A DNA stretch of 63,969 nucleotides. Source: Chiloscyllium plagiosum. Lineage: Eukaryota. The notes under the pieces were generated by a model. That model was not told where the DNA came from. It was given only the letters and a program-made list of their open reading frames with translations, and did no database searches. Shown here piece by piece: positions 2,537 through 63,180 of this stretch. Both the position numbers and the translations under genes were made by a program. Every line of letters begins with the position of its first letter. Position 1 is the stretch's first letter. Location: NCBI RefSeq assembly GCF_004010195.1, contig NC_057738.1, positions 31,709,164 through 31,773,132 of the forward strand. The letters are read 5' to 3'.

Positions 2537-2559
2537 CTTGTAACGCACCTTTCAGTAGA

Positions 2560-7653: not shown

Positions 7654-8153
7654 NNNNNNNNNNNNNNNNNNNNNNNNNNNNNNNNNNNNNNNNNNNNNNN
7701 NNNNNNNNNNNNNNNNNNNNNNNNNNNNNNNNNNNNNNNNNNNNNNNNNNNNNNNNNNNNNNNNNNNNNNNNNNNNNNNNNNNNNNNNNNNNNNNNNNNN
7801 NNNNNNNNNNNNNNNNNNNNNNNNNNNNNNNNNNNNNNNNNNNNNNNNNNNNNNNNNNNNNNNNNNNNNNNNNNNNNNNNNNNNNNNNNNNNNNNNNNNN
7901 NNNNNNNNNNNNNNNNNNNNNNNNNNNNNNNNNNNNNNNNNNNNNNNNNNNNNNNNNNNNNNNNNNNNNNNNNNNNNNNNNNNNNNNNNNNNNNNNNNNN
8001 NNNNNNNNNNNNNNNNNNNNNNNNNNNNNNNNNNNNNNNNNNNNNNNNNNNNNNNNNNNNNNNNNNNNNNNNNNNNNNNNNNNNNNNNNNNNNNNNNNNN
8101 NNNNNNNNNNNNNNNNNNNNNNNNNNNNNNNNNNNNNNNNNNNNNNNNNNNNN
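7654..8153. other. Assembly gap (500 N)
   Basis: Run of N. Confidence 1.
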
Positions 8154-10569: not shown

Positions 10570-13500
10570 AAAAGCCGCGACCTCTGAAACTACAGCACAA
10601 TTGGCTGTGGATCAGGTCTGGACTCTTGAACAGCGAGTCCAATCCTTAGAGAATCACATTGATGACCTTGAGAATCGAGGTTGTTGAAAAAATATTCATT
10701 TGCTGGGCCTTCCAGAATGGGAAGAGGAAGGCCAGCTTACAGTGTTCCTTGAACAGTGGTTTCAACAGCTGTTAAATCTGGAGGCTGGATCAGGCCAGGT
10801 AAGGGTGGAATGGGCCTACTGGGTTGCAATACGTGGGCCCAGCTCAAACCAGCGTCCCCCGCCCAGTCCTGTTCCGGCTGCAGAGCTTCAAGGAGAGGCA
10901 GATACTCTTAGAAGCCTCCCGAAATCTTGAAAATGATCCCCAAGCCATGATCTATAAAGGATCCAAGATCATGTTATTCCAGGGCTTTTTCCCAGCTCTG
11001 GTCTGAAAAAGGAAGGCGTTTGATGAAGCGAAGAAGTATTTAAGGGACTTAGATATTCAGTACTCCTTGCACTACCCAGCAACGCTACCCTTTAACCATT
11101 AAGGGTCCGTGTATAACTTCGGATCGCCGGAAAAGGCCAAGGAATTTTTGGACTCTCTTAGATAAACTGTAAGAGTTAATTGATGTTGTTTTGCTTTCCC
11201 CCCACTGCGGTTTACATCCCCCTTTTTTTATATATATTAATCCCTTTTTTTTACCTTAATGTTTAATATTATCTTGGGGGATGGGGAGAGAGATTTATTT
11301 ATTTGTTCTCTACTTAACGATTTTCTCCCCTTTTTTTTATTCTATATATATATGCCGGGGGTCTAGTTAATGTTGGTGGGGGGAGGTGGTTACCTTATCC
11401 TATTTTATCTCTGTCTTTAGGAGCGGGGTTGTCAAGGGTGGGGCACTGGTTGGGAGAGGATACGATGGACTTTTGGAAAGGAAGTGATAACCCCTGGAAC
11501 AAGGGGGAAATCTCCATTTAAATCCGTTTTATATTTTTTTTATTTAGAAATAGTTTTTTATTATACTGTTGTGACTGTATTAGAGAGCCTTTATTTTTGT
11601 GAATTTTATATGCTCTATGCTCGGGATGTTCTGGATAGGGTTTCCCCTCATGAGGGGTCTTGGACTTGCCCGGATGATTATGGTTGATCAGTTGGTTAAG
11701 TGGTGCACCTGGAATGTCAAGGGGAGTAATTCACCAGTCAAAAGGAAGAAAATATTATCAAACCTCAAGAAAGAAAGGGTTGATATAGCTCTCCTACAGG
11801 AGACACACTTATTGGATAAAGAACACTTGAAATTACGAAAGGGTGGATTTGATCAGGCCTTTTTTTCTTCTTTTAGCTCAAAAAGCAAGGGAGTTGTTAT
11901 TCTTATTCAGAAGAATTTCCCTTTCAAAATCCTAAATCAGATAAAAGACGAGCTGGATGATATATTCTGATTAAAGCCCTTATAAATGGAGAGGAATATG
12001 GGATTTTAAATTTGTATTGCCCCCGGCCCATCCTTTTAAATTTATAACGGAAGCCTTCTCAAAATTGATGGCTCTCGGTGCTCGTCATACAATTATAGGG
12101 GGAGACTTTAATTGTATTATGGATCTGGAAATAGATAGGATTCCCAAGAGTACTGCAGGAGTATCTCCCAGATCTAGACAATTGGTGGAGCTGAACAAAG
12201 AATTAGGATTAGAAAATGTATGGAGATGTCTTCATCCACAGGGCAGAGATTTTTCTTTTTACTCCAATCCACATAAATGCCATACCAGAATCGATATGTT
12301 TTTTGCCCCCTCAAGTTTTTTAAATTCCATATCATCCTGTAAAATAGGCAGTATAGCAATTTCCGATCACGCTGCTGTATATATGGAAATCAAGGCGAGG
12401 AACAATGAGACATCCCCCCGGCATTGGCATATGGACCCCTTCCTGATGAAAGATAGTAAATTTGTAAAGTACTTCTCTCAAGAATTTAAAACTTTTTTAG
12501 AAATTAATTCAGGTACGGCTAGCAACCCATCAATGATGTGGGAGACCACCGAAGTTTACGCGCGAGTTTTGATCATCTCATACTCAGCGACCCAGAAAAA
12601 CTTAAAGCGAGAACAATAGCATCTGCTCGAAGCTCGCTTAAAAGCGGCTGAAACAGTATACGCTGACAGACCTTCTATTATCAAATTACAAAGGATTACG
12701 GCCCTTAGGACAGCTCTAAACACCACGCTTACCCAAACGGCTAAGAGGGAACTATTATTTGCAAAACAAAGGTTATATAAATTTGGCGATAAACCTGGTT
12801 GACACTAGCATTTCTTGCAAAGAAAAAGAAGGCCCCTCAAACTATCACGTCTATCAAGGAAAGTACGGGTATTTTGACTCATGATCATAAAAGGATTAAC
12901 GCAATCTTTAGAAAATTTTATTCTGATTTATATAAATCACAGGATTGCAAAGACAGGACTAGGAGGATGCAGTCATTTTTTAAAAACCTGACCTTTCCGG
13001 ACCTAACTCTGGAACAGGTATCAGTCCTGAATGTTCCCTTAACAATCCAAGAAATACTTGACACAATCAGGCAACTTCAGAGCGGTAAGACACCTGGCCC
13101 AGATGGCTTTCAAGCTGAATTCTATAAAGAATTTACAGGAATATTGGCTAGTCCACTTATGGACATGTATAACTATTCATACAGTCAGGGCTGTCTCCCG
13201 CCTTCGCTGAAAGAGGCGAATATCTCTCTTATCCTCAAAGAAGGAAAGGACCCAGAAGTTGTATGTCATACAGACCAATATCCTTGCTAAATGCAGATTT
13301 TAAAATCCTTTCTAAAACTTTAGCATTGAGACTAGAAAGGGTACTGCCACATATTATAAAGGAGGATCAGACGGGGTTTATTAAAGGTCGTAGATCATCC
13401 AATAATGTCAGAGGGTTTTGAATGTGATTCAAGCCTGTCATCAGGGAAAGATAACAGGAGTAGTAGTCTCATTAGAAGTGGAAAAGGCATTCAACAGGGT

Positions 13501-15823
13501 TGAATGGTCATATTTGTTTTACACATTGGAAAGGTGTTTACCAAATGGGTCTCAACATTAAATAGTAATCCCAAAGCAGTTGTGATTACCAATGGATTAG
13601 GCTCAGATAGCTTCAGTGTGGATAGGGTCTGCCGTCAGGGATGTCCTCTCTTGCCATTGCTATTTATGCTAATAATTGAGCCACTAGCAGAAGTTATATG
13701 GGCTGACCCTAATATAACGGTCCTGAGGATTGGTACAGGTAAACATAAAATTACCCTTTATGCAGATGATGTTCTTCTTTTTCTCAGTAAGCCCCTGATG
13801 TCCGTGCCTCGTTTCATCCAAGTTATTAATACATTTAGTGTATTTTCAGGTTATAAAATTAATTTCTCAAAATCAGAGGCTATGCCAATGGGTGACCTTG
13901 CTAGTATATCCCACTTATTTGATGGATCCCACTTTCCCTTTTGGTGGTCCCTGGAGGGTTTCTTATATTTAGGCATTTTTATTACCCCAGTATTTGGTCA
14001 GTTATACAAGGCTAACTTTGTGCATTTACTGGAAAGGATAAGGCAGGACCTCCAGCGATGGTGTGACCTTCCAATTTCCTGGCTAGGTAGAATAGCACTA
14101 ATTGAAATGAATGTCCTGCCCTGTCTCCTATACTCCATGAGAATGCTTCCGGTGATGCTGCCGAGGCTGGCACTACGTAAATTATATGGCTGGTTGGGTT
14201 CCTTTATCTGGAATCATAGACGACCCCTCATTAAGCTGAAGAAGCTACAGCTTCCACAGGCAAGGGGAGGACTGGATTTCCCATATTTTAGGATATATCA
14301 GTTAAGTTCCCTATTAAATTACATTGGGTCTTGTCTGACCCGCAATCAATCTGGCTGGACATCGAGGCTTCTCAAGTAAAATGCCCAGTTATTAACCTTT
14401 TATTTTCAGACAAGAGGAATATCATCACAGATCAATGCAAAAACCCTATAATACTAAACACAATTAAAGCTTGGAATATAATGCGGCAAAATGAGGGCAA
14501 TTCACATAAAACATCCCCCTATGCTCCGATAGTGGGAGCATGGGGATTTCAACTGGGGCTTACAGATGTCACTTTCAAACTCTGGACATCCAGGGGTATC
14601 TCCTGTTTAGGGGATCTGGTTAAAGAAGGGGTCCTGATGTCTTTTGAACAGCTGCGTCAGAAATTTGGATTACCTGATGGAGACTTCTATCGATACTTCA
14701 AAATTTGAGATTACATACAGAAGAAGACTATGTTATTAGATAGTCTTTATAAATCAGATAGAAAACATAGAATGCTATGGCCAATGGGGGTATCTTCCGT
14801 CAGTACTATTTATCACTTATTACAAGATGAAGTATCGGGAGATATGGACAATCTGCTTAAAACATGGGATCAGGATTTGGGACTAGAAATCTCTATAGAA
14901 ACATGGAATGACATTTGGGAAAACGCCAGAAGAATCACCATCTGTAACAGAACTCAGGCTATCCAGCTGAAGATACTTCATAGGGCCCATATAGCACCGG
15001 ATCGATTGGCAAAATTTAAGGCAGGAGCATCTTCAATGTGTCCCAAATGTAAAATAGAGGTGGGCACTCTTGTACATTGCTTATGGACCTGTCATAAGAT
15101 CTGTAGATATTGGACTAAAGTAGCAAGTGCTCTGACAGAAATCTTAGGAACGGAAATTAGAGTGGACCCTGTATCTCTCCTTTTGGGCTTTTCAAACTTA
15201 CCCTGCCTGGATATGCACAGGAAGAGATTATTTTCTATTCTCTCTTTCTGTGCAAGGAAAAATATTTTGGTAAACTGGTTGGCTGAGGGCCCCCCTGGAC
15301 TTTCAAATTGGCACAGATTAATTATGGAATGTATTCCCCTTGACTTCCTTACAAATATGGTGCACCAAAAGACCGCATTATTCCACAAAATATGGCAGCC
15401 CTTCTTGAATTATATAAATACAGATATTTCGACCATCCTAACTAGGGCTTTTATTTAATTGAGATAGTCCGGGGCCCCTTGGGAGAGGAATCCTGCATGA
15501 ATACGGGTTTTGTTACATTTGATGTTAATACATTCCGAGCATGTATCTCACTACCCAATTTCTGTGTCATCCGTTGTTTTTTTTTCTTTTATTTGAATAA
15601 TGTAAGAGACTTAATTATACACTCTGGTTAGTTGTAGGTTAGATTAGTAGTTAGCTGAGTTTTGTTTTTTTTTTCTTGGTATTTTTCTTTTGTTAAATTT
15701 TGGTTATTATTTATTTAAGATTTAATTGTATATCAATGTTTATACTTGGGGTTTTTTTATTTGTAAACTTGTAAAAATATGTTAAATTTTCAATAAAAAT
15801 ATCTATATATATAAAAAAGAAAA
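10570..15823 (+). mobile_element. L1-clade LINE, 5'-truncated within ORF1, inactive
   Basis: ORF1 remnant DDLENRG..KNIHLLGLPE to ~11165; ORF2 APE-RT-zinc knuckle; AATAAA at 15792-15797; A-tail 15813-15823. Confidence 0.95.
11674..15458 (+). pseudogene. L1 ORF2 (endonuclease/reverse transcriptase), frameshifted
   Basis: TWNVKG, LLQETHL, IIGGDFN, RIDMFF, SDH; GKTPGPDG, RQGCPL, LYADD, FLYLG; CPKC...HCLWTC; split over several ORF-track segments. Confidence 0.93.
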
Positions 15824-16004: not shown

Positions 16005-16147
16005 ATGATGAGGAGGTTCCAGTGTTGAACTGAGGTGGACAAAGTTAAAAACCTAGCTACCTGATCAAGGCGCAGTGCTCCGAAAGCTAGTACTTCTAAA
16101 TATACCTGTTGGACTATAACCTAGTGTTGTGTGATTCTTAACTTTGA
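16005..16147. mobile_element. PLE family B fragment with degenerate hammerhead
   Basis: TAC-CTGATCA-AGGCGCAGTGCTCC-GAAAGCTA-GTA (~16058-16093) plus family B arm and tail. Confidence 0.75.
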
Positions 16148-31415: not shown

Positions 31416-33765
31416 GACACACCACCCTTTGTGAGAAAAATTTCCCTCACCCATCTCTTATAAAAATGTGCCCCCCACATCTTGAACCTGTGTCCCCTAG
31501 TAATTGGCTCCCCCACCCTGGAAAAAGCCTCATTGTTTCCTCTCTATCCATGCCATTCACAATCTTATAAATTTGCATTAAGTCATTCTCAACCTCCTGC
31601 ATTCCAGTGAAAACAAACCCAGTCTATCCAACTTTTCTTCATTGCTAAAATCCCCCATATCAGGCAACATCCTGGTAAACCTTTTCTGTACCCTCTCCAA
31701 AGCATCCACATCTTTCTGGTAGTGTGGTGACCAGAACGGTACACAATATTCAAAGTGTGGCTCAGCTAAAGTCCTATAAATTTGCAGCATAACTTGCCTA
31801 TCCTTATACTCAATGCCCCTTCCAATGAAGACAAGCCTGCCATAGGCCTTTTTTACTCCCTTATCCACCTGAACTGTCAGTGAGCTGTGGACTTGCACAC
31901 CCAGATCCCTCTGCATATATACTCCTAGGGGTTCTGCCATTCATAGTATAATTTCCACCTGTCCTTGTACTTCCAAAATGCATCACCTCACATTTGTTCG
32001 GATTACACTTCACCTGCCATTTTTCTGCCCATGCCTCTGACTGATCTATATCCTGCTGTATTCTCTGACAATCCTCCTCACTGTGCGCAACTCCACCAAT
32101 CTTTGTATCGTCCACAAATCTACTAATTAGACCAACTACATTTTCTTCCAAATCATTTACGTGGACCACAAACAGTAAAAATCCCAGCACTGATCTCTGT
32201 AAACACTACTGATCACTGACCTCGATTCTGAAAATCATCCTTCCACCACTATCTCCTATGACTAAGCCAGTTCTGTATCCTTCTTGCCAGCTTACCCCAA
32301 TACCGCGTGACTTAATCTTTTGTACCAATCTGCCATAAGGGACCTTGTCAAAGGCTTTACGGAAATCCAATATCAACTGTTTTTCCCTCATCTACAACTT
32401 TGGCACCTTCTCAAAAAACTCAATCAAATTAGTGAGGCATGACCCCCCCAGCACAAAACTATGCTGTCTATTACTGGTAAATCCACTTGCTTCCATAGAT
32501 CTGGTCTCTGAGAATCGTTTCCAATAATTTCCCTACTACCAACATGAGACTCACAGGCCTGTAATTTCCCAGAGTATCCTTGTTACCCTTCGTAAATAAT
32601 GGTACTACATTGGCTATTCTCCAGTCCTCTGGGACTTCACTTGTGGCCAACAAGGATACAAAGATGTCTGTCAACGCTCCAGCAATTTGTTCTCTTGCCT
32701 CGCACAATATTCTGGGATACAGCCCATCAGGACTCAAGGATTTATCTACCCGAGTACTTTTTAAGACACTCAACACCCAATAGCAACTTTGCCTCGAAAT
32801 TCGACAATCTCTTACCAGAGATCATCCTGCACCAATTCCTTCTTTTCGGTGAATATTGACACAAAGTATTCGTTTAGGACCTCAACTCCTTCCTCTGGCT
32901 CGACACATCAATTCTTTTCTTAGAGCTTGAGTGAGCCAACACTTTCCCTGACTACCTTCATGCTTTCTATATATGTATAAACATATATATGTGATTCTCC
33001 TTAATCCTGCTTGCTAATGACCTATCATGACCCCTTTTAGCAATCCTAACGTCTTGTTTAAATTCCTTTCTACTTTTCTTATATACCTTAAGGGCTTTGT
33101 CAGTTCCCATCCTCCTAGCTCTTATGTATGCTTCCTTTTCCTTTTGATCATAACATCCCTGGTCATTCAAGGTTCACGTAACCTGCCATACCGACTCTTC
33201 ATTCTTGCAGGAACATGCTGCTCCTGAACTCTTATCAACTAACGTTTGAAATACTCCCACATGTCCAATGTGGATTTTCCCTCAAACAGGCACCTCCAAT
33301 CAAAATTCTCCAGTTCCTGTCTAATGTTGTTAAGCTCTGATCCCCAGCATCTGCAGTCCTCACTTTCTCCTAATATTGTTGTAGTTCGCTTTCCCCCAGT
33401 TTAACACCTTCACCCGAGGATTGCTGTTATCCCTATCCATGAGTATCTTAAAATTCACAGTATTATGGTCACTACTCACGAAGTGCTCCCCCACTGAAAC
33501 TTCAGTCACCTGGCCGGGCTCATTTCCCCAAACCAGGTCCAGTTTAATCCCTTGCCTGGTTGGACTATTTGAATACTGTGTCAGGAAACCTCCTGAATGG
33601 TCTTTACAAATTCTGCCCCATCCAAGCCCCTAGCATGAAGTGAATCCCAGTCAATACAGGGGAAGTTAAAGTCACTCACTACAACAGCCCTGATGTTTTT
33701 ACATCTTTCCAAAATCTGTCCACATATTCTGTCTATCTCCTGCTGGTTTCTGGGAGGTCTGTAGT
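31416..33765 (-). mobile_element. CR1/HER1 LINE (endonuclease C-terminus to RT), frameshifted
   Basis: DKSLSPDG, EDWRIANVVPLF, NYRPVSL, LDFRKAFDKVPY, FVDDTKIGG, ERVQKRFTRMLP. Confidence 0.92.
33332..33369 (+). mobile_element. PLE tail-only insertion (~38 nt)
   Basis: CTCTGATCCCCAGCATCTGCAGTCCTCACTTTCTC flanked by CTAATGTTGTT (33321-33331) and CTAATATTGTT (33370-33380). Confidence 0.7.
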
Positions 33766-34065
33766 GTTTGAAATAGTTGATTGCCTCAACATCTATGAAA
33801 AAGTTTCAAAAGGACCGCTTGGAAATAAAGAAAGGTTACATCATTAATTTACTGATAGCAGATGGCAGAATTTTTTTTTCCTGAAATCGTAATTGAGAAA
33901 ATTACTTAAAATTTAAGTACACATGAGAAATTCAGTTTAGGGGGGTAAATACAATTACATTTTTAATTTTATTTTGAAACAAGAGCCAACGGAGACAGTC
34001 TTGTTGGTTTTAAGTTAAAAATCACACAACACCAGGTTATAGTCCAACAGGTTTAATTGGAAGCA

Positions 34066-34100
34066 CACTAGCTTTCGGAGTGACGCTCCGTCATCAGGTG
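34066..34100 (-). ncRNA. Minimal hammerhead ribozyme motif (family B, minus-strand copy)
   Basis: Minus strand CAC-CTGATGA-C-GGAG(CGTCA)CTCC-GAAA-GC-TA-GTG. Confidence 0.7.
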
Positions 34101-34124
34101 ATTGTGCTTCAGGTGTCCACAAAT

Positions 34125-34159
34125 CACCTGATGAAGGAGCGTCGCTCCGAAAGCTAGTG
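34125..34159 (+). ncRNA. Minimal hammerhead ribozyme motif (family B, plus-strand copy)
   Basis: CAC-CTGATGA-A-GGAGC(GTC)GCTCC-GAAA-GC-TA-GTG; helix I CAC/GTG, palindromic AGCT helix III, CUA cleavage triplet (after A34156). Confidence 0.78.
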
Positions 34160-35909
34160 TGCTTCCAATTAAACCTGTTGGACTATAACCTGGTGTTGTG
34201 TGATTTTTAACTTTGTACACCCCAGTCCAACACCGGCATCTCCGAATCATGTTGGTTTTAATGTGCATCAAATAAAAGGGGAAAGTTTATTTGGGAAGAA
34301 ATTAATGACAACTGATGAAGCCTATCAGCCCAATTGCACTCCTGAGGCTGAACAAAAACGAAAAGCTCAGGCCTTTTGTTGTCAATTTTAAATGTGGGAT
34401 AGCTTTTCAGAAAAAGAAAAGTCAAGTATAACTTAGCAAATTACTTTTGAGAGAATTGTATGCTTTTTTGAATCTTGGCAGAATTTTGGTAATGCTTGAA
34501 ATCACACAATAATATTTGATTTCTGTTTTAAAGGTATTGTGAAAATATGCTTTTAAAAAAACAAATAACCTGGACAGCAAGGTTTCTCCAAAGCTTCTGG
34601 ATCAGATAGAATAGTAATTGATGGATTGGCTCATTTAGAATTAATGAACAGTGACAGGGAAAAAGTGACAATGCACCATATGAAAATGGAAATTATTCTC
34701 TTGGGGTATAGTTACTTGGAATATATCAAGTGAAAGGAAAATACTCATGAAATTAAATCATATCAGCTTTCTCTTGGAGATATGTAAGCCTTTGCCTATG
34801 AATTTTCTACAAGAGCTGAGTTGGATGATTTGGCCATTACCAGAATGTTGGGACCAGGCAGGGAGGATACATATGCATCCCCACCAATTTTAGGTATTTT
34901 GAAAAGGTCATCTGGAGGTCAAGAGTGCATGGCGTGATCTTGGGATACCTATTTAAGTGTGCAGAAACAATTATTACAACTGAAATAACTAACTTGAGGA
35001 GATGCATGGTGAAATTGCATTGAAGAATGGGCCTCAGACATGTACATCTACTTAACAAAATGGTTATTGTGGCCTGGAAGAGCACAAAATTATAGTTCAA
35101 CTGATGAAGCTCATAATCCACAGAGAAACTGACTTTAAAACAATGAAAGTGGTATTGGTGAGAAGGTAAAAACTAAAGTAAAATGAACTTTGGATCAGGA
35201 CAATCAGAAACTAAGAAGGGAAATACTTAAGAAATCCACAAGATGGGTTGAGATGAAGGGTAAACTGAAGAATCTTTTCTATCCAACCACAATCCATCAC
35301 TGAATGTAATATAGCCAGCTAAAAATGAGCCAATGAAGAGAGGAGAATTCCAACAATTCCATGTTGGAACCCAAGGCAATGGTTGGCCCGAATCTATCTA
35401 GGTCAGTGATGTTGGGGCTGGACCAACGGCCAAAAAGGGGAAACTGTTACATTTTGAGGTTCCTGAAAAACTGAAGTTCCCTAATATTTACTATCTAGCA
35501 TTACATTTCTTTCTAACAGCTATTACAGCATCACTTTTCCAAAACTCTAGCATATGAAAACAAAGTCAAGAATTACAAAAATATTGAGGTCACGTTGCCC
35601 AACGATGGGCATTAGCAATTCATCTGGTGCCAAACGCATCCTATCATCAGTGTGTCATTTATTTGAAAATGAGCTTAGAAAGAATAGCAAAGTTACCCTC
35701 ATACTAGGACAGGCAAGGGGATAATGAGCATCCAGTGTCATGAGTGTCTGTACAATGGCCATTGCTTAAAAGGGTTCAGATGATTGATGAACACAGAGTA
35801 AATAGCCTGCCCCCCTGAAATATGAGGCAACAATAAATGTCAGGCTCTGAGAGAGCAGGACAGGAGACACCAGAGAGAAGCCTGGAAAGGCTAGGCCGAT
35901 TCCACACTG

Positions 35910-36368: not shown

Positions 36369-37707
36369 ATTCCTGATTCATTCAGGGATCAAGAATAGAG
36401 TAGATTCAGGGTACAAGGGAGCTTCCCCAGACAGCAATCTTCACCGAGCAGGTGGAAGCCAGTCCTGAAGGAGAGGAAGAAAACTGTGGGGAGAGTTACC
36501 TAATACCTCATCACATGAGAGCAGGATGCTGACCCACCACTTTAACATTCTTCAACAACAGTCTGTATGCCCTGCGGTATCAGTGAACCATCCCCAGTTA
36601 TCCCCTTGGACATTAAATAAAATCTAACTATCATATCAAAACTGCTGCTTCTTAACAATAATCAGAAAACTATTTACAAATTGTCGACTGTCTAAATGCG
36701 ATCACAAACTCCTAAAGTCAAGAATCAGTAACGATTCTATATTGTACCTCAGAGAAAGTGGAATTCCATTAATTGACCCTCCCAAAATGTGAAACATTCA
36801 CATACAAAGAAAACCAAATTGTGAGCCAGAAGACACGGAACACAGTGACAGACTCTGCCATGTTGTTCATTGGACAGATAGTTCATTTACATACATCATA
36901 AAGAAAGAGGGCCCAACTCGGATTTGTCGAGATTCAAAATATTTAAGCCTCTCTCTCAAGAGAGTGCACATGAGAATCCAACACTTGCAGAACTGAAACC
37001 CACATTCATGAGAGCTAAATCTTGCTCAACCTTTGGGCCAAACATCGATACAAAGGCTCAAAAGCAGAAATTGCTGTAAAAACCTACAGAGCGTTTCCAG
37101 CACTTTCTGTTTTTGTTTCTGATTTCCAGCATCTACAGTTCTTTGGGGGTTTTTAATGGATGTAATGGGTACATACATTACGTCCTTGAATGTGGAAGAA
37201 CTTTTGAAGCCAAGAATGGATTCATTAGCCACCTGAGAGCCCAAACATAGATTAACAGAACAAAGACCATCATTCTCAATCTTGAGGGATAGCCATGATG
37301 ACAATGAATGAGCACATGTAACAATGGAACCCAGAAAGCATCTACCGTCAGAATACAATTTGGAAGAGATTGTTTGCAGACACTGCCTTTCAATTTGTCT
37401 GTCAATCAAGTTCTGTTCCAGCAACACATAGACAGCATTGTAGAAAGTGTTTTGGTCACATATGCAACACTGATGATATTGCAGTCATGAGCACACCCAA
37501 AGAAAAGCATGGTTAGAACCTTCACTCGTTGCTTGCAGTAGCTCACTGTGAGTGTCTCATGTACAACAGCATGAAGTATTTAGTCAATGCAAGTCCAATC
37601 AATTATATTGAAGTGGCTGAATCTACCCTGACCAGGGCAAATTGGAGGATGTAGGATTCTGAACTTTCTCAACAAAGCATCATCATAAAGAGAGTTCCTA
37701 AAAAAAA

Positions 37708-38350
37708 ATGACTTGGAGGTGTTGGCGTTGGATAGGGGTGGACAAAATTAAAAATCACACAACATTGGGATATGGTCCAACAGGTTTATTTGGAAGCATT
37801 AGCTTCAGAGCACTGCTCCTTCATCAGGTGGTTGTGGAGAATAAGATCGTATTCACGGAATTTATAGCCATAGGAGTCCAGTGTCATGGAGATGTGATTC
37901 AGTAAACAGTCTTGGATTAAAACTTTCATCTTTTATAATGAGATATGCTGGTTTCTGTTCTTTGATATGTAAATCCCAGAGCTTCTTTTAAATTACAGTC
38001 TCAAGTTAAAAATCACACAACACCAGGTTGTAGTCCAACATGTTTAATTGGAAGCACTAGCTTTTGGAGCACTGCTCCTTCATCAGGTGGTTGTGGCCGA
38101 AGCATTCCAATTAAACCTGTTGGACTACAACCTGGTGATGTGTGATTTTTAACTTTGTGTACCCCAGTCCACTACCGGCATCTCCACATCATTCTCAAGT
38201 TAGCTCAGCTTTTTAAACAATGGGTGTGAATGAAGTCTGTCTGTATCCCAATGCTATGTCAGACTGACAAATCCTCTGTATAGTTTTACAGCATTTTACA
38301 TGGATTCATGCAGTTTTTGAGCAAAATAAAATGTAATTCTGCAAAAACAA
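37708..38350. mobile_element. PLE family B element containing a second family B hairpin (~38009-38192)
   Basis: TSD TCTCAAGTTA at 37999-38008 and 38193-38202; degenerate minus-strand hammerhead cores near 37797-37830 and 38055-38089. Confidence 0.8.
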
Positions 38351-41014: not shown

Positions 41015-42312
41015 CATAGAATCCCTACAGTGTGGAAACAGGCCATTCAGCCCATCAATTCTGGATCAATGGTGCTGGAAGAGCACAGCAATTCAGGCAG
41101 CATCGAGGAGCTTCAGCAAAATCAACGTTTCGGGCAAAAGCCCTTCATCAGGAATAAAGGCAGAGAGCCTGAAGCGTGGAGAGATAAGCTAGGGGAGGGT
41201 GGGGCTGGGGAGAGAGTAGCATAGAGTACAATAGGTGAGTGGGGGAGGGGATGAAGGTGATAGGTCAGGGAGACCAGGACCTGCATGTCCTCGGCAGAGT
41301 GGGAGGAGGAGTTAAAATGTTGGGCCACAGGGTGGTGGGGTTGATTGGTGCGGGTGTCCCGGAGATGTTCCCTAAAGTGCTCTGCTAGGAGCCATCCAGT
41401 CTCCCCAATGTAGAATAGACTGCATCAGGAGTAACGAATACAATAAATGACATTGGTGGATGTCCAGGTAAAACTTTTTGATGGATGTGGAAGACTCCTT
41501 TGGGGCCTTGGATGGAGGCGAGGGAGGCGGTGTGGGCGCAGGTTTTGCAATTCCTGCGTTGGCAGAGGAAGGTGCCATGAAGGGAGGGTGGGTTGTAGGG
41601 GGGGCGTGGATCTGACCAGGTAGTCACGTACGGAACGGACTTTGCGGAAATGGGTGGGGAGGGAAATATATACTGGTGGTGGGGTCCGTTTGGAGGTGGC
41701 AGAAATGTCTTCGGGTGATGTGGTTTATGTGAAGGTTGGTAGGGTGGAAGGGGAGCACCAGGGGGGTTCTGTCCTTGTTACGGTTGGAGGGGTAGGGTTT
41801 GAGGGCGGAGGTGCGGGATGTGGACAAGATGCATTGGAGGGCACCTTTAACCACGTGGGAAGGGAAATTGGGGTCTCTAAAGAAGGAGGCCATCTGGTGT
41901 GTTCTGTGGTGGAACTGGTCCTCCTGGGAGCAGATACGGCGGAGGCGGAGGCGGAGGAATTGGGAATACGGGATAGCATTTTTGCAAGAGATAGAGTGGG
42001 AAGAGGTGTAATGCAGGTAGCTGTGGGAGTTTTACCTTTTTACCATTCAGCCCATTAAGTCCATGCTGACCCTCTGATGAACATCCCACCCAAACCCACA
42101 CCCCTACCCTGCCCCTGTAACTCTGCATTTCCCAGGGCTAACCCACCTAGGCTGCACATCCCAGACACTACGGGGCAATTTAGCATGTCCCATCCATTTA
42201 ACCTGCACATCTTTAATTTGTCAGAAGAAACCAGAATACCCAGAGGAAGGCCACGCAGACACAGGGAGAATGTGCAAACTCCACACAGACAGTCACCTCA
42301 GGATAGAGTTGA
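41015..42312 (-). mobile_element. HE1-type SINE interrupted by a PLE
   Basis: Tail at 41015-41058, body at 42043-42312; duplicated CCATTCAGCCCAT at 41043-41055 and 42043-42055. Confidence 0.8.
41059..42042 (-). mobile_element. Penelope-like element (Neptune-type): RT C-terminus, GIY-YIG endonuclease and pLTR with hammerhead; degenerate
   Basis: Minus strand KNAIPYSQFLRLRLRRICSQED, TPLVLPFHP, GTFLCQRRNCKTC (Cys linker), NVIYCIRYS*CSLFYIGETG..FREH..PVAQHFN; pLTR ATTC-CTGATGA-A-GGGC(TTTT)GCCC-GAAACGTT (41121-41155). Confidence 0.9.
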
Positions 42313-43404: not shown

Positions 43405-43670
43405 AATGGACAAGTTAAAAATCACACAACACCAGGTTATAATCCAACAGGTTTAATTGGAAGCACTAGATTTCGGTGCGCTGCTCAGGTGGTTGTGGCG
43501 AATAAGCCCATAAGACATAGAATTTATAGCAAAAGATTACAGTGTCATACAACTGAAATGATATATTGAACAAACCTAGATTGCTGTTAAGTCTTTCACC
43601 TTTTGGATTGGGTTGCAGGTTCCGGTTCATTCATATGTAAATCCCAGAACTTCTTTTAAGTCACATTAAT
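43405..43670 (-). mobile_element. PLE family B fragment
   Basis: AAGTTAAAAATCACACAACACCAGGTTAT arm; body matches 37830-37990 and the reverse complement of 49390-49570. Confidence 0.8.
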
Positions 43671-43924
43671 TGTTGGACACCGTTATCAAATGAAGGCAAT
43701 TAGTTTAGGTGTGGTTTTGTATGTTTACTTGTTGTGGAATTGGAGGCTTCCTGATTTATGTCAACTCATCTAACCAAGTATTTGCTTACGATTACATATG
43801 CAAATGACACCGAAATCTACCTCAGAGCACAAGCACCAGCACCGTTACACCCCTTGATCATGTTCTTATGGATGGATTGGGAGGAAGGCTAATCAAATCA
43901 CTTGCTCTAAATTCTGTGTATATG

Positions 43925-44060
43925 GTCCTGCTCCACAGCTACCTGATGAAGGAGCAATGCTCCAAAAGCTAGTGCTTCCAATAACCTGTTCGATTATAAC
44001 CTGGTGTTTTATGTTTTTTAAATTTGTCCACCCCAGTTCAATGCTGCCTCCTCTACCTTA
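43925..44060 (+). mobile_element. PLE family B pLTR with degenerate hammerhead
   Basis: CTGATGA-A-GGAGC(AAT)GCTCC-AAAAGCTA (G12 lost) plus arm and tail. Confidence 0.75.
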
Positions 44061-44782: not shown

Positions 44783-45334
44783 TTGGTGGATTCTGTCTAT
44801 GTACTTTACAATATTAGGAGTAAGCTAAAGTTTATATATGTATTTAATTGTGTACATTAGATGAACAAGGCACTTGGAAAGGATTTCTATGTATTCTGGA
44901 ATGGAGGAATCCTAACTAAATGTTTACACATGCTCAAGAAGGCACAGTTAACAAATAAATTAGCATTTGACTCACAAAATGTTTTAGATTGGAAGCTCTT
45001 GATCAAGGCTTGCATTTATATTTTAGAAATGAAGTATTAGCCAAGACCAGAATATGCTATTTCAAATCACTTTTAAAAGGAGGATATTTGGAAATATTTC
45101 TTTATGAACTTTCAAAGGAACTTAGTAAACTCTGACAGATGGGGAAGTATTTACTGTGATTGAAAAAAAGGTATTTGTAAAGGGTTAGTATAACATAGGA
45201 AGAAGGGAAGTTAAGTGAAGGTACTTGGCAAGTATTTTAAAAATACTTTGTGGAAAGGATAATCTCCAGTTAGTGTCACTAAGTACTTCAGAAGCAATCG
45301 TATTTGACAGTTGTAAGAGCAGATAGGAAAGAAA

Positions 45335-45545
45335 GCTAAAAATCACACAATATCAGGTTGTAGTCCAACAGGTTTATTTGGAAGCACTAGCTTTTGGAGC
45401 ACTGCTCCTTCATGAAGTGGCACAACACCTGATGAAAGAGCAGCGCTCCGAAAGCTAGTACTTCCAAGTAAACCTGTTGGACCATAACCTGGCGTTGTGT
45501 GAGTTTTAACTTTGTATACCCCAGTCCAACACCTGCACCTCCAAA
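45335..45545. mobile_element. PLE family B fold-back element
   Basis: Inverted arms around 45420; plus-strand CAC-CTGATGA-AAGAGC(AGC)GCTCC-GAAAGCTA-GTA at 45426-45460. Confidence 0.85.
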
Positions 45546-46140
45546 AGATAGGAAATATATATTCTGCAAGTATGGTTCAATTTCTGTGGCTTGTAAAAAC
45601 ATTTTAAGCAAGACAAAGATGCAGGCATATGGTCTATAGTATAAAGATGACTGCTTATTTTCTGCTGTAATGACCTGATTACAAGGAGGTTATGGTGCCA
45701 TTGTTTTGTCACCCCAAACATTGAACACCATTGATTTAAGATAAATAAAACTATAAATTGTTTCCTTTTGTATTTTTCATTTAAAAAGCGATGTTTATCT
45801 AAAACTTATCTATCCATTTTTTAACTTGTTGATAGAAATATGGTTCATTTCCTGATCCCACCAGTGGAAGGATACATTTTGCATAGTAAGTGTAAAATAA
45901 AAAATTTGCAAGTCTCACGTTATAGGGTTTCAGCAGTTTCAACATTTCTGAAGGGAAGTTATTTTGAACATACTTAGAATTATAATTCCCAGAAATCAGG
46001 GGTTGTGTGCAGATGGGAAACTAAAACTGGTCAAAGGAAAACCAGGAAGGCTGAAGAAGCTGTGATTCAGTCAAAACTGCTAGTAGGACATAACTCTTTT
46101 CTTCGGGCTCCAGATATTGAAAACAAAATTCCACAAACAG

Positions 46141-46163
46141 ACTTGTTTTCCATTCTCATCCAG
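46141..46163 (+). other. Splice acceptor of the XCR1-like A coding exon
   Basis: ACTTGTTTTCCATTCTCATCCAG|GAAC, 37 nt upstream of the ATG. Confidence 0.7.
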
Positions 46164-46200
46164 GAACGATCACACAAAGCTGTGCTTGAAAAGTCCAGCT

Positions 46201-47298
46201 ATGTCAACAGCAGAACCTAAAATCCATACTGACTTCTATGAATATCATGGCTACTATGACGATTATGGAAATGATTCGGCATTAATTTACTTATGTGAGA
46301 ATCATGAACCCAATGCATTTGGAGCCACTCTGACACCAGTTTTGTTCAGCCTCACCTTTATTATCAGCCTGGCTGGGAATGCCCTAGTTTTGTGGGTCCT
46401 GGTGAGATATGAGAGGCTGAAGACTGTGACGGACATCTTCATTCTGAATCTGGTCACCTCCAATTTACTCTTCACCTTCTCGCTCCCTTTCTGGGCTGTG
46501 GATCACACGAGAGGATGGATCTTTGGCAAGGTCATGTGCAAAATCATGAGTTCAATTTTCTTCATTGGCTACTACAGTGGGATCATGTTGCTGACACTGA
46601 TGACCATCGATCGATATTTTATTGTAGTCCATCCTCTGCCTGCTGTCAGAATCAGGAAGGTCTCCTATGCCATAGCAGCCAGCTCAGTCGTTTGGGGAAT
46701 TAGTATGGCAGCAACAGTCCCTGAGATGATCTTCTCTGATATTGTGGGTCATGAGGAGAACAGGCTGTACTGTATCAGTGACTATCCACCTGAGAGTGCT
46801 CAAATATTGGAACTGTTGGGCTATTATCTGCAAAATATCTTGTTCTTCTTCATCCCCTTTGTTGTTATTGTGTTCTGTTATTGGAGAATTCTCAACACTG
46901 TCATTAGATGCAAAGCCAAGAAGAAACACAAGACAGTGAAACTTATCTTGTGGATTGTGGTGGTGTTCTTTGTGTGCTGGACACCTTACAATGTGGTCAT
47001 CCTCCTGTTCTCTTTGGTAACATTGAAAGTCCCGGCGTTCGAAACCTGTGAGATGAACATCCACTTGACTTACATGTTTTACATTTCCCGGGACCTGGCT
47101 TATTGCCACTGTTGTCTCAACCCCTTCTTTTATGCTTTTGTGGGGACAAAGTTCAGAAACCATTTAACTTTGATCCTCAGGAAGTATTTTCCTCAGATGG
47201 GGATCCATAAGCCACCGAGACACAGACGCAGAAGCCATTATCTGAGCAGTTCAACTGACTATTCCAATGCTTCTTCCACATTTAACACATATCTTTAA
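46201..47298 (+). CDS. XCR1: XC chemokine receptor 1-like, paralogue A (365 aa)
   Basis: 7TM; GNALVLWVLVRYE, QNILFF, HKTVKLI, R7.39 in ISRDLAYCHCCLNPFFY and FVGTKFRNHL are XCR1-type. First ATG after the acceptor is 46201 (ORF track starts at an intronic TTG). Confidence 0.88.
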   Translation: MSTAEPKIHTDFYEYHGYYDDYGNDSALIYLCENHEPNAFGATLTPVLFSLTFIISLAGNALVLWVLVRYERLKTVTDIFILNLVTSNLLFTFSLPFWAVDHTRGWIFGKVMCKIMSSIFFIGYYSGIMLLTLMTIDRYFIVVHPLPAVRIRKVSYAIAASSVVWGISMAATVPEMIFSDIVGHEENRLYCISDYPPESAQILELLGYYLQNILFFFIPFVVIVFCYWRILNTVIRCKAKKKHKTVKLILWIVVVFFVCWTPYNVVILLFSLVTLKVPAFETCEMNIHLTYMFYISRDLAYCHCCLNPFFYAFVGTKFRNHLTLILRKYFPQMGIHKPPRHRRRSHYLSSSTDYSNASSTFNTYL

Positions 47299-47390: not shown

Positions 47391-47609
47391 CTAGGAGAAA
47401 GTGAGCACTGCAGATGCTGGAGAGCAGAGTCGAGAGTGTGGTGCTGGAAAAACACAGCAGGTCAGGCAGCATCTGAGGAGCAGGAGAATCGATGTTTCAG
47501 GCATAGAGCCAGAATTCCTGGGGAAAGATTTATGCCAGAAACATCAATTCTCCAGCTCCTCGGATGCTGCCTGACCTGCTGTGCTTTTCCAGCACTACAC
47601 TCTCAGCTA
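47391..47609. mobile_element. PLE family A fold-back element with 11-bp TSD
   Basis: TSD GTGTGGATTAA at 47380-47390 and 47610-47620; ~75-bp arms 47432-47506 / 47529-47604; hammerhead core degenerate (CTGGGGA). Confidence 0.85.
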
Positions 47610-47756
47610 GTGTGGATTAATTCCAATCTAACCAATACAACATACAGTAGCAACCAGGGCAACATGAATATATCCAGCACCATTCACAAGGCAGCATGCA
47701 TTTATAAAGCATCTTCAAAGTTTGAGGCATTTTGCAAGTACACTACTAATCATTTT

Positions 47757-47875
47757 TAAAAATCATACAACACCAAATAAACACAGGCTTATTTGGAAGC
47801 ACTAGTTTTCAGAGCACTGCTCCTTCATTTTTAACTTTGTACACCCCAGTCCAACACCAGCACCTCCAAATCATG
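47757..47875. mobile_element. Internally deleted PLE family B element
   Basis: TTAAAAATCATACAACACC...GGAAGCACTAG...TTTTTAACTTTGTACACCCCAGTCC; contains AATAAA at 47776-47781. Confidence 0.7.
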
Positions 47876-49389
47876 ACTATTAATTATAATTTAACATCAA
47901 ATCAAGTCAGCAAATATCAAGATAGGTTACCAAAGGCTTGATCAAAGAGGTGGGTTTTAAGAAGCATCTTAAAGTAGGAGTGAGGACAAGAAACCCAGAG
48001 GGGAATGGGAGGAAATTCTAGAGTTTACAATCAAGGCCAAGAGTGAATGGGGCTCCCAATGACAACACGAAGAGAGTGAAGAACACAAGCTGAATCCAGC
48101 CTTTTACGTGGGGTAGGTCCAATCAAACCCTGTAAGCTGTGAGAATGACTCATACTAACCATTCACAATTCAAGGTCATTCCATTCAAATCCTTTACAGT
48201 GAGACATGCAACCAAGTAAGCCCTTTCCAGAGTGAGATATACTCACGCTGACAGTTACCAAATTTGGAACAAAAACAGAATTTGCTGGAGAAACTCAGCA
48301 TGCCTGGCAACACCTGTAGAGAGGAAAAGAGAGTTAAGAGCAAACATTTTGAGTCCAGCGACCCTCATTCTGCTACAAATAATAAGTTTCACGTTTGGGA
48401 AAGCTTTTATTATGTCCAGGATTAACCCTAAGGTAGTAGCCTTTGCCATATGGACTGTAATGGTTCAAGAAGACAGCAATCCACCCATTCCTCAATGGTA
48501 ATTAGGGATGACCAACAAGGTTGGCCTTAAAGATGACACTCACAATCCATGAATGAGTTAAAAGTGTAACACTCTGGCCTCCAGTTGAGGTGATAAGGGT
48601 CCCAGCTCCATTCTAAAATCTTGAATGCATGATCTGGATTGATTCTTCACTGTAGTACTGAGGGAGCTGTCTGAATTATCATTATATATCATCAAGAGCA
48701 GGATTTTAAACACCTGGGACTCTGCTAATACCTGGTCTATACACTAAACCACATCCATTTGTAACAGCGGACTACTTACAAAAACTCAAACAATTCCATA
48801 TCCAACCAAGGTCTACCTTTCTCCATTCACAGGACTTAAACTTTGAGTCCTGTCAAACACCTCCTGAAAGATTAAACATAGTCAAGTTATCTTTATCCAT
48901 CAACTTAGTTACTTGCTTAGAAAATTAACTGGTTGGTGAGAAATGGTTTTGTTTACCAAATGCCATGTTGCGGTTCTTTAATAACATAACCAGAGTATCA
49001 TACCGTGCATCTCTAGTCGTCCCTTTGAACAATGTCCCAGTAACTGAGGTTAACCTACTGGGCTTCTGATTCTCTGGTTCTGATGTGCTGTCCTCTTTGA
49101 ATGTAGGTACTAGATTAGCTTTCCTCCCAATCCATCCATAAGAACATGATTAAGGGGTGTAACAATGCTGTGCTTGTTCTCCAAGCTAGATTTTGATGTT
49201 GTTTGCATATGTAATCATAAGCAAATGCTTGGTTAGATAAGTCAGGAAGCCTCCAATTCCACAGTGAGTAAATATACAGAACCACACCTAAACCACTTGT
49301 CTTCATTTGAGTATGATGCTCAAGTCACATCCAACCTTTTACGTGGGGTAGGTCCAATCAAACCCTGTAAACTGTGAGAATAACTCATA

Positions 49390-49695
49390 GTTAAGTTAAT
49401 GTGACTTAAAAGAAGCTCTGGGACTTACATATTAATGAGCTGAAACCTGCAACCCATTCTAAAAGGTGAAAGATGGAAGAGCAATCCAGGTTTGTTCAAT
49501 ATATCATTTCAGTTGTATGACACTGTAATCTTTTGCTATTCATTCTGTGTCTTATGGGCTTATGCTTCACAACCACCTGATGAAGGAGCAACACTCCAAA
49601 AGCTAGTGCTTCCAAATAAACTTATTGGATTATAACCTGGTGTTGTGTGATTTTTAACTTTGTCCACCCCAGTCCAACACTGGCTCCCCCACTTC
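49390..49695 (+). mobile_element. PLE family B 3' fragment with degenerate hammerhead
   Basis: CAC-CTGATGA-A-GGAG..CTCC-AAAAGCTA-GTG near 49574-49608, then arm and tail. Confidence 0.8.
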
Positions 49696-50839
49696 ATTTT
49701 AAACAGTCTTACACCTTGCATTTTTCCACCTAGCCTGACAGAAGCTTTTGGAGTTCATTGACTTTCACATCCTATAATCTGACACAGAGTTAGGGTCAGA
49801 ACTAACTGAGTCCACGAACAGCAGAATCCACCTTTGCAAACATCCCCACTGAATTCAAACAAATTAGATTTTTCACAACAGCATAAGATTACTTATTACT
49901 ATTAATTACTAAAAATTACTATTGTTCAATTATCTTTATTGTTTGTAGCACACTGGTTTAATAGGCCTTTTTGAATCTTAACCCATAATTATAAACCTTA
50001 TTATCCTGCAGGTTGAGGAGGTAGCATTTTAAAGGCTATGGTAATCTCACTTAGCACTGTTTTTACACATAGGTTCAAAGGGTGTCAGAATGGTTTCAAC
50101 CCCAAACTAGAGACTTTAGAAGATAATTTGAAGTGATGCTTTGGTACTATGCTTGAGCAGTGCTACATTGTTATCTCATTGCTCATATTAAAATGCACTT
50201 TATGTCATTAAACTGCAGATTAATCTACTCTTGTCACTTTACTTAGATGCTATATCATTCAGCGATATTTTCTGAACTATACAACATTTTGTTAACCATT
50301 TATTGTCTCATTAATTGTTCATTATCTGAACAACTGTACAGTTTCATGTTAATTTGTTGGTAAAAGACGTTATTAATTATCATAAACTCTTAAATTGTTA
50401 GCTAACTCATTGCATATTATCTCATGATATTTGATTGAGCCAATCATTATTGTACTAACTGTATTTTTCATTCAGCTGTATATTGTCTCATTAAAATTCC
50501 TATTTGTGTTCTAATTATTTTCATTATTCAACAATGCACTATACCATTAACTTATCACTATCTCAGTTATCAGATAGCCCATCAAGCTGGACATTATCTG
50601 AACAGTTGTGTGTTTTCTCAACTTCATCAAATTGTTCCTTATCTTATACATCAACACATCATAACATTACTTCTTATGTGTTGAATTACTTTTACATTAT
50701 CTCATCAACAGCAACAATAATAATGATAAATATACCTTGACACAAAATCATAGCATAAGAAAATATCCCTTGGTGCTTCATAAGAAGGTAATGAATTTAA
50801 GCTTGGCACCAAGTCAACAAAGAAGACAGCATGAAGATT

Positions 50840-60137: not shown

Positions 60138-60203
60138 TTTATTGTGCCAACCACTGCACCACACCCAGAATTTCCTCTGTGTTAAGATCACAGAACAGAC
60201 ACC

Positions 60204-61304
60204 ATGGAACAGTCTCTTTCAAATTATTCAGATTATTACGATTATTATTATGATGAATCTAACACAACAGCAGATTATCAGCAGTTTGTTCACTTATGTG
60301 AGAACATTCACATTAATCTATTTGGAGCCATGTTCACACCAGTTTTGTTCAGCCTCGCCTTTATTATCAGCCTGGCTGGGAATGCCCTAGTTTTGTGGGT
60401 CCTGGTGAGATATGAGAGGCTGAAGACTGTGACGGACATCTTCATTCTGAATCTGGTCACCTCCAATTTACTCTTCACCTTCTCGCTCCCTTTCTGGGCT
60501 GTGGATCACACGAGAGGATGGATCTTTGGCAAGGCCATGTGCAAACTCATGATTTCAATTTTCTTCATTGGCTACTACAGTGGAATGATGTTGCTGACAC
60601 TGATGACCATCGATCGATACTTTGCAGTGGTTCACTCTCTGTACGCTTTCAGAGTCAGGAAGGTCTCCTATGCCGTGACAGCCAGCATAGTCGTTTGGGG
60701 AATTAGTTTCATGGCAACAATCCCTGAGATGATCTACTCTGATGTACATCTTCGGATGGAAGGACTGTACTGTTTTAGTATCTATCCACCTGAGAGTGCT
60801 CAAATATGGGAGCTGTTTGGCTGTTATCTGCAAAATATCTTGTTCTTCCTCATCCCATTTGTTGTTATTGTGTTCTGTTACTGGAGAATTCTCAACACTG
60901 TCATTAGATGCAAAGCCAGGAAGAAGCACAAGACAGTGAAACTTATCTTGTGGATTGTGGTGGTGTTCTTTGTGTGCTGGACACCTTACAATGTGGTCAT
61001 CTTCCTGTTCTCTTTGGTAACATTGAAAGTCCCGGCGTTCAAAACCTGTGAGATGAACAACCGCCTGGAGTATGCTTTGTACATTTCCCGGGACCTGGCT
61101 TATTGCCACTGTAGTCTCAATCCCTTCTTTTATGCTTTTGTGGGGACAAAATTCAGGACCCATTTAATCAGGCTTTTGAGTAAATGTTTCCCCCGTTTGA
61201 AAATTTGCAGAGAACTCAGTACCACCTCTGGCAACAGTAGCAAACGCATCAACTCCCGGAATTACTCAGACATCGACATGCCCCTGCATTCAATTGGGTC
61301 TTGA
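60204..61304 (+). CDS. XCR1: XC chemokine receptor 1-like, paralogue B (366 aa)
   Basis: Kozak ACCATGG; 7TM; LEYALYISRDLAYCHCSLNPFFYAFVGTKFRTHL closely parallels mammalian XCR1 TM7/helix 8 (R7.39); Tyr/acid-rich N-terminus. Confidence 0.9.
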   Translation: MEQSLSNYSDYYDYYYDESNTTADYQQFVHLCENIHINLFGAMFTPVLFSLAFIISLAGNALVLWVLVRYERLKTVTDIFILNLVTSNLLFTFSLPFWAVDHTRGWIFGKAMCKLMISIFFIGYYSGMMLLTLMTIDRYFAVVHSLYAFRVRKVSYAVTASIVVWGISFMATIPEMIYSDVHLRMEGLYCFSIYPPESAQIWELFGCYLQNILFFLIPFVVIVFCYWRILNTVIRCKARKKHKTVKLILWIVVVFFVCWTPYNVVIFLFSLVTLKVPAFKTCEMNNRLEYALYISRDLAYCHCSLNPFFYAFVGTKFRTHLIRLLSKCFPRLKICRELSTTSGNSSKRINSRNYSDIDMPLHSIGS

Positions 61305-63034: not shown

Positions 63035-63180
63035 AGGAGAAAGTGGGGACTATAGGTGCTGGAGATCAGAGTCAAAAGTGTGGTGCTGGAAAAACACAGC
63101 TGGAAAAAAGGCAGCATCCAAACAGGAGAGTCGACGTTTCGAGCACAAGCTCTGAAGAGTTTATGTTTGAAACGTAGACC
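63035..63180 (-). mobile_element. PLE family A element with partial inversion
   Basis: Tail GGAGAAAGTGGGGACT..., arm, then inverted hammerhead halves ACGTTTCGAGCA...TGTTTGAAACGT. Confidence 0.7.

Follow-up and report, generated by a model that had tools for sequence, protein, structure and literature searches.

The stretch of DNA analyzed here, referred to throughout as the window, comprises 63,969 nucleotides of the Chiloscyllium plagiosum genome (contig NC_057738.1, positions 31,709,164 to 31,773,132 of the forward strand) and is interrupted by a gap of 500 Ns at ~7650-8150. Three open reading frames (ORFs) for 7-transmembrane receptors lie at 1463-2551 (-), 46087-47298 (+) and 60186-61304 (+), which we take to be a chemokine receptor cluster; Pfam 7tm_1 was recognized in the two that were scanned, and the frames at 46087-47298 and 60186-61304 are 90% identical over 883 bp. 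A near full-length, frameshifted retroelement with endonuclease and reverse transcriptase (RT) frames, presumably L1/Tx1-like, occupies 11584-15458 (+), and many CR1/L2-like fragments are found elsewhere in the window. The focal feature of this report is an insertion at 34002-34261 that folds back on itself and carries a hammerhead motif in each of its two arms; the repeat to which it belongs is termed here the focal family.

The insert proper spans 236 bp (34014-34249) and is bracketed by a direct repeat in which 12/12 letters are identical, at 34002-34013 on the left and 34250-34261 on the right. Because only 4/20,000 random pairs of 21-nt stretches from the window had a 10-mer in common, the probability that this target site duplication (TSD) arose by chance is negligible. 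The last 2 nt of the left copy also fit the family sequence and the first 2 nt of the right copy also fit the family tail end, and this 2-nt microhomology at both outer junctions blurs the TSD limits, such that the honest range is 10-12 bp. The hairpin is formed by arms of 92 nt (34012-34103 and 34122-34213) that are 98% complementary, with 2 mismatches, and that are lengthened in the fold prediction to ~95 by 3 more pairs beyond a 1-nt bulge. The predicted energy of the fold is -182.4 kcal/mol vs -63 for shuffles (z = -27, equaled by 0/200 shuffles). In terms of the repeat, and with positions counted from the hammerhead nucleotide C3, the left half is a tail-less, inverted pseudo-LTR (pLTR) arm (34012-34106, sense on the minus strand) that runs from -10 to +85 and stops at an internal 3' end of the focal family. 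A 9-nt centre linker follows at 34107-34115 and shares 8/9 letters with 34092-34100; it is likely a templated insertion from the joining of the two halves. The right half consists of a pLTR arm on the plus strand (34116-34213), which begins at -12, and a 36-nt tail (34214-34249, +) that lies between the two 3' ends of the focal family and corresponds to the 'tail' of Penelope-like elements (PLEs). This tail is without a partner arm. No empty site was present among the 15 of 731 joints listed for contigs of the public DNA runs described below.

Each arm contains a minimal type I hammerhead motif with an intact core, a call that is based on pattern, family consensus and criteria from the literature. 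The plus-strand motif (34125-34159; C3 = 34128, G12 = 34149, A17 = 34156) has a predicted cut after A34156, a stem I of 3 bp and a stem II of 5 bp; the minus-strand motif (34066-34100; C3 = 34097) has a predicted cut after 34069, a stem I of 3 bp and a stem II of only 4 bp. An extra base follows A9 in both, A on the plus strand, as in the family consensus, and C on the minus strand; the G10.1-C11.1 pair is present in both arms, and helix III consists solely of the AGCU palindrome (34152-34155 on the plus strand). The minus-arm changes at 34081 and 34090 weaken stem II and allow a possible 5-bp alternative hairpin that takes in G8 and A9. An ATG inside the hammerhead core closes after 8 codons. 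A search with Rfam returned 0 matches at the gathering level in the whole window, and hence no hammerhead match; the best of 15 sub-threshold matches near the focal element were to miRNA models fitting the hairpin, and these miRNA and sRNA candidates were rejected because all score below gathering and reflect the hairpin. A preliminary description of this locus, made from the sequence, had reported a ~236-bp insert with a 12-bp TSD, near-perfect ~95-bp inverted arms, hammerhead cores that are complete in both arms and have a single additional base following A9, and a palindromic AGCU helix III, all of which the alignments, patterns and folds reproduce. Its ~36-nt unpaired tail stands as to length and position outside the long hairpin, but not as wholly unpaired, given that parts of the tail are predicted to pair with the TSD copies.

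By BLAST, the focal repeat occurs at seven further sites of the window, as five fold-backs and two single copies with tails. Two of the fold-backs, at 38003-38192 and 45332-45545, have 10-bp TSDs and centres that differ from that of the focal element; in the first of these, 6 nt are shared between the TSD and the arm end. A third, at 43407-44056, is bounded by a 12-bp TSD and is strongly asymmetric, with a tail-less arm that reaches -464 and a tail arm that reaches ~-50. An assignment of its arms to two subfamilies was rejected, as both belong to the same body, one being long and the other short. The remaining two fold-backs, at 47756-47875 (TSD 10/12) and 16005-16146 (no clear TSD), have tail arms without a hammerhead. 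The single copies are located at 49113-49698 (+), with at least 460 bp of non-coding body upstream, and at 37705-37997 (-), with ~160 bp of body. The latter is joined by the 38003-38192 fold-back, such that 37705-38192 consists of a fold-back at the 5' end of an older focal-family copy and mimics the canonical inverted-plus-tandem layout. Additionally, a 61-bp segment of the upstream body stands alone at 48094-48154, 1.2 kb from its counterpart at 49329-49389, with 95% identity. No ORF joined to the focal family was found in the window, where the longest copies contain ~460 bp of non-coding body.

The wider extent of the family was assessed in three public DNA runs, two from organism A and one from organism B, a congener, over the region 33400-34900. 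Contigs matching this region numbered 52,487, 64,039 and 83,440 per run, a minor part of which belongs to another repeat at 33450-33750. The ratio of summed depth over the focal arms to that over the flank was 3-6 x 10^5, and tail depth was 0.41-0.47 of arm depth in the three runs; these contig depths are indicative only and give no copy number, and the arms fit two places. Despite these caveats the order of magnitude is plain, and the focal family is very abundant. Among the 18 of 1,455 loose-end rows listed, pile-ups occur at 34214-34216 and at 34243-34250 in 3/3 runs each and at 34013 in one run; the family has two 3' ends ~36 nt apart, one at the arm end and the other at the tail end. The other loose ends listed (34066, 34125 and 34159) are internal, arising because the focal copy has a 2-nt insertion and a 5' limit, and their consensus is the family hammerhead with an intact core. 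Many differing arm-to-arm junctions are represented among the 15 of 731 joints listed. One joint, from 34073 to 34146, was found at ~35 times flank depth in both organism-A runs, and may represent a multi-copy fold-back form or a recurrent junction. From the ~6% of one RNA run that was covered, 0 reads matched the region, a sample that says nothing about expression or cleavage. DNA patterns of the focal repeat gave 0 matches in viral, metagenome and prokaryote genome collections, as expected for a vertebrate repeat, and no description of this shark family was found in the literature searched, a scope outside which lie Repbase, Dfam and most subscription journals.

A second hammerhead repeat in the window, the sister family, has the same layout of a motif, ~60 nt, a first end and a ~35-nt tail, with no sequence match to the focal family outside the hammerhead core. 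It forms six fold-backs, at 964, 5568, 16814, 47392, 55198 and 63034. A further sister-family copy at 41070-41157 (-) directly follows a broken ORF, the whole feature (41070-42040, -) comprising a broken RT-thumb, a Cys linker and a GIY-YIG remnant and then the sister pLTR, with C3 at 41151. For the 135-aa frame at 41624-42031, 29 homologues were obtained among 100 candidates, the best three being Chiloscyllium punctatum proteins of 78-82% identity, and both RT and GIY-YIG domains are present in relatives. A GIY-YIG region is matched by the second frame, 41122-41424 (E = 1e-7). The shark host proposed in the preliminary description is supported by these Chiloscyllium matches, which make a host resembling bamboo sharks likely. 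Pfam applied directly to the three remnant frames recognized 0/3, and the PLE assignment of the remnant rests on the homologues of its frames. The linker between the remnant frames has the form Cys-x4-Cys-x2-Cys and points to the Neptune type in the sense of PMC8557442. At the level of sequence, the sister family thus identifies a repeat that forms such fold-backs as the end of a PLE. The focal family would presumably have an autonomous partner as well, with the ORF link provided by the sister family only.

The layout of the focal element, an inverted 5'-truncated pLTR plus a tail, is one already published for PLEs. Endonuclease-bearing (EN+) PLE units are depicted with an inverted, 5'-truncated copy at the 5' end and a 30-40-bp tail that is often at one end only (Craig et al. 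2021, PMC8557442, Fig. 2), and pLTRs in inverted orientation, accompanied by a tail of 31 bp and by TSDs of 8-10 bp (the latter in Adineta), have been reported (Arkhipova et al. 2013, PMC3846280). The focal element shares with such units the head-to-head, 5'-truncated copy, the one-end tail, the short TSD and the hammerhead in the pLTR near the 3' end. Unlike these units, it consists of two end pieces without a body, the fold-backs in the window have TSDs of 10-17 bp and a local density of ~one per 5 kb, and an ORF of the focal family is not seen here. The hammerheads themselves resemble the minimal hammerheads (min-HHRs) of metazoan PLEs, for which a type I core, an extra base between positions 9 and 10.1, a G10.1-C11.1 pair, a palindromic 15.2-16.2 and a short helix I are described (Cervera and De la Pena 2014, PMC4209133); the focal motifs have all five features, but differ in having a helix II of 4-5 bp rather than 7-8 and a helix I of 3 bp. 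In Schistosoma, min-HHR pairs occur 100-700 bp apart on opposite strands (PMC4209133); the same study found a monomer to have no activity, and the dimer requirement of minimal hammerheads is summarized in PMC6765202. Sharks are not named for min-HHRs in the accessible part of PMC4209133, and those of PMC6155905 and PMC8969392 hold nothing further on sharks. A link to PLEs had been suspected from the outset, and it is upheld by the inverted pLTR, the tail, the minimal type I hammerhead and the need for a dimer; we regard the PLE identity of the focal element as very likely.

Two other systems are instructive. The Poseidon element of Anolis carolinensis has been studied in vitro, where its protein nicks and extends both strands, two RT start sites bound the tail, and uncleaved RNA serves as template such that hammerhead cleavage is unneeded (Frangieh et al. 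2024, PMC11167929). The focal family is alike in that its two 3' ends bound the tail, as do the two start sites of the lizard element, and in its AT-rich targets. It differs in that the Poseidon ORF starts inside the hammerhead, whereas the ATG in the focal core soon closes; the inverted arm is not modeled in the available text of the Poseidon study. Fold predictions for both shark families pair the tail with the pLTR (34175-34234; 5640-5705; 47392-47490 on the minus strand) and leave the inner 3' end looped out, an arrangement that resembles the stem-loop described for the start sites of the lizard element; it is predicted in 4/5 copies folded and is not significant vs shuffles (z -0.4 to -1.8). 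The second system, the non-LTR retrozymes, comprises tandem units derived from PLE pLTRs that have been reported in one chondrichthyan (Li et al. 2026, 10.64898/2026.07.22.740005). Like these, the focal repeat is non-coding, carries a type I hammerhead and is linked to the PLE pLTR. Retrozymes are same-strand tandem repeats, whereas the focal element is an inverted pair with a tail and TSD; the repeat takes part in none of the window's 7 tandem arrays and each strand has one sense motif, and a retrozyme assignment was rejected. A MITE or fold-back DNA transposon was rejected on the basis of the 36-nt tail past one arm, the 12 differing centres and the variable TSD length, and a tRNA-derived SINE on that of 0 tRNA genes and 0 Rfam matches at the gathering level.

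Taken over both families, the window holds 12 fold-backs, six focal and six sister, or ~one per 5 kb, and these display several regularities. The tail is on exactly one arm in 12/12, an outcome with a probability of ~2 x 10^-4 under independence of the arms at p = 0.5, and the centres are different in 12/12. On the strength of these two properties, each fold-back was likely built anew at insertion. TSDs of 10-17 bp flank 10/12, three of them imperfect (10/12, 14/15 and 9/11), and a clear TSD is missing at the fold-backs at 964 and 16005. The tail-less arm extends further 5' than the tail arm in 10/12 fold-backs (p = 0.04); the focal element is one of the two exceptions, its tail arm reaching -12 vs -10. 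Furthermore, the range from -12 to +4 relative to C3 contains the start of the tail-less arm in 10/12 and that of the tail arm in 2/12 (p = 0.003, for a range chosen post hoc); when the range is widened to +10, tail arms in 5/12 are included and p = 0.09. These starts were placed manually on the basis of local alignments with copies in the window, and one arm, 63153-63178, is only 26 nt long and weakly aligned. At the outer end of the tail-less arm, microhomology to the target measures 2 nt in the focal element, 6 nt at 38003 and ~3 nt at 43407. Two sister-family tail-less arms, 5568-5599 (-) and 63153-63178 (+), stop no more than ~3 nt from the cut site, beside the TSD, and not at the inner end that is usual for such arms. 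Such cut-site ends were rejected as proof of cleaved templates, being also readable as microhomology on uncleaved RNA, and are retained as a lead only.

Together, these features indicate that the focal element is probably a dead-on-arrival PLE insertion composed of two short end pieces of an abundant hammerhead repeat, joined head-to-head. As to how the fold-back arose, we favor, with moderate confidence, a route of two-ended priming. The GIY-YIG endonuclease of a PLE would nick both target strands ~12 bp apart. Both target 3' ends would then initiate reverse transcription of uncleaved element RNA, the start being the tail end for one and an internal site 36 nt upstream for the other, and both primings being assisted by the 2-nt microhomologies. 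Finally, the two short cDNAs would be connected through the ends opposite to those primed, in the focal copy by way of a 9-nt templated filler. We infer these priming and joining steps, as we do the inactivity of the focal element discussed below. Two primings, one per target strand, would explain the single tail, the arm lengths and the microhomologies at both outer junctions. Both focal arms run through the hammerhead cut site, and this fits an uncleaved RNA template, as in the Anolis PLE. A similar process is familiar from L1 twin priming, in which both target nicks prime reverse transcription and the cDNAs are joined, resulting in an inversion inside one TSD. The L1 halves are non-overlapping parts of one RNA, whereas the focal arms overlap, and overlapping arms need two RNAs, a tandem RNA or the reuse of one template. 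Two refinements of two-ended priming are put forward tentatively. Each target nick might have a set role, with tail-end priming assigned to one and internal priming to the other, and the internally primed cDNA would halt at a fixed position just 5' of the hammerhead. If the template RNA itself begins at that position, such a cDNA might be a run-off ('strong-stop'-like) product, to be joined afterwards to the other cDNA at a variable point. The term 'strong-stop' was not found in the PLE literature searched.

The principal alternative also starts from a PLE stub and differs in the source of the inverted arm, which would be made by self-priming, an RNA or cDNA bending back on itself at the centre and serving as its own template. 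A version of self-priming on an antisense template has been proposed for head-to-head repeats (PMC3846280), and it predicts a shorter tail arm, as in 10/12 fold-backs. Self-priming fits the focal copy equally well, where the tail arm is the longer one and the arms, with differences at 2/87 sites and shared subfamily marks, are each other's nearest relatives. For self-priming of a tail-primed cDNA, however, there is no route to a tail-less arm that extends further 5', as found in 10/12 and at its extreme at -464 vs -50; such a cDNA folding back cannot make the tail-less arm longer 5', and an inner-primed cDNA cannot supply the tail. The microhomology of the outer end to the target is as expected if the target primed the tail-less arm, and the Anolis protein extends both target strands (PMC11167929). 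On balance we consider self-priming unlikely, and two-ended priming remains the route that we prefer.

A different proposal, advanced in the preliminary description, is that the fold-back is mobilized in its entirety as a non-coding, ribozyme-bearing unit, and that cleavage by the ribozyme is in a kinetic race against hairpin formation. The intact state of both focal motifs, the very high abundance of the family and the one joint form at ~35 times flank depth in two runs are compatible with such a unit, and the underlying observation, that a transcript of either strand contains one ribozyme and its own antisense, is correct, there being one sense motif per strand. The race itself is not supported. 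Because the focal arms meet head-to-head at their 5' ends, transcription from either side produces the antisense arm first and the sense hammerhead only afterwards. When transcripts of both strands were folded prefix by prefix, core bases C3-G8 had an unpaired probability of ~zero once the core was complete, stem II never formed, and forcing the hammerhead fold cost +57 (plus) and +56 (minus) kcal/mol. In isolated arms, stem II is predicted with p = 0.85 and 0.98 and stem I seldom, with p = 0.04 and 0.12; all these folding figures are equilibrium predictions rather than assays. Moreover, as each strand has one sense hammerhead, dimerization in cis is impossible. The hammerheads of a read-through transcript of either strand would be enclosed in the long hairpin and would lack a same-strand partner for a dimer; they would not be expected to cleave, and on these models the focal element is most likely an inert stub.

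Sequence decay across the family leads in the same direction. Among the 14 focal-family arms of the window, the full core with the 10.1-11.1 pair is kept in two, both of them focal; G12, which sits in a CpG, is lost in four, and the motif is absent from three, with 3/6 focal-family fold-backs having such an arm. The frequency of changes is similar at core and other sites (7/113 vs 71/868, p = 0.58), at odds with the expectation that the core would be kept better than its flanks. Non-CpG core sites change somewhat less (3/102 vs 69/857 other non-CpG sites, p = 0.07), a difference that selection acting on master copies would account for. Helix covariation in the 14 arms, with 90.6% of 85 cells paired and two-sided change at 1/8 pairs, is no better than in shuffles (219/500). 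The intact focal motifs are best explained by low age, and the hammerheads are likely passengers of the pLTR in this insertion. With 12/12 centres different, several arms devoid of a hammerhead and a core that decays like its flank, a self-mobilizing fold-back is not supported, and we judge it very improbable. An origin of the hairpin after insertion, by inverted duplication in DNA repair or by two insertions meeting head-to-head, is scarcely credible: repair joints typically carry a templated filler such as that at the centre, a tendency of PLEs to insert close together is described (PMC6765202) and the 38003 copy abuts an older copy, but both arms lie inside one TSD in 10/12, the tail-less arm ends at the family's internal end and the tail is on one arm in 12/12.

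The significance of the focal element as a single locus is small, as it is likely an inert copy of a described structure; the fold-back population matters somewhat more. How the inverted repeats and tails of PLEs form, and what the role of the hammerhead is, are stated as open in PMC8557442 and PMC11167929, and ~one fold-back per 5 kb locally amounts to a natural experiment on the PLE inverted-repeat mechanism. With copies on the order of 10^5, counting alone would separate two-ended priming from self-priming. Fold-back copies, wherever transcribed, would also be a large source of long perfect double-stranded RNA.

Finally, several observations bear on the age of the focal insertion. The description of the element as young is accurate in the relative sense that it is the least decayed family copy in the window, with arms that differ at 2 of 87 sites, but it does not extend to a very recent insertion, as the element is apparently shared with organism B. 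A contig of 429 nt from that congener aligns to 33609-34036, shows 15 differences over its length and continues for 23 letters inside the focal element, where an empty site would read otherwise; this overlap is shorter than the 31-letter bar set for bridging. The alignment suggests that the focal insertion predates the split of two species that are ~3.5% apart.
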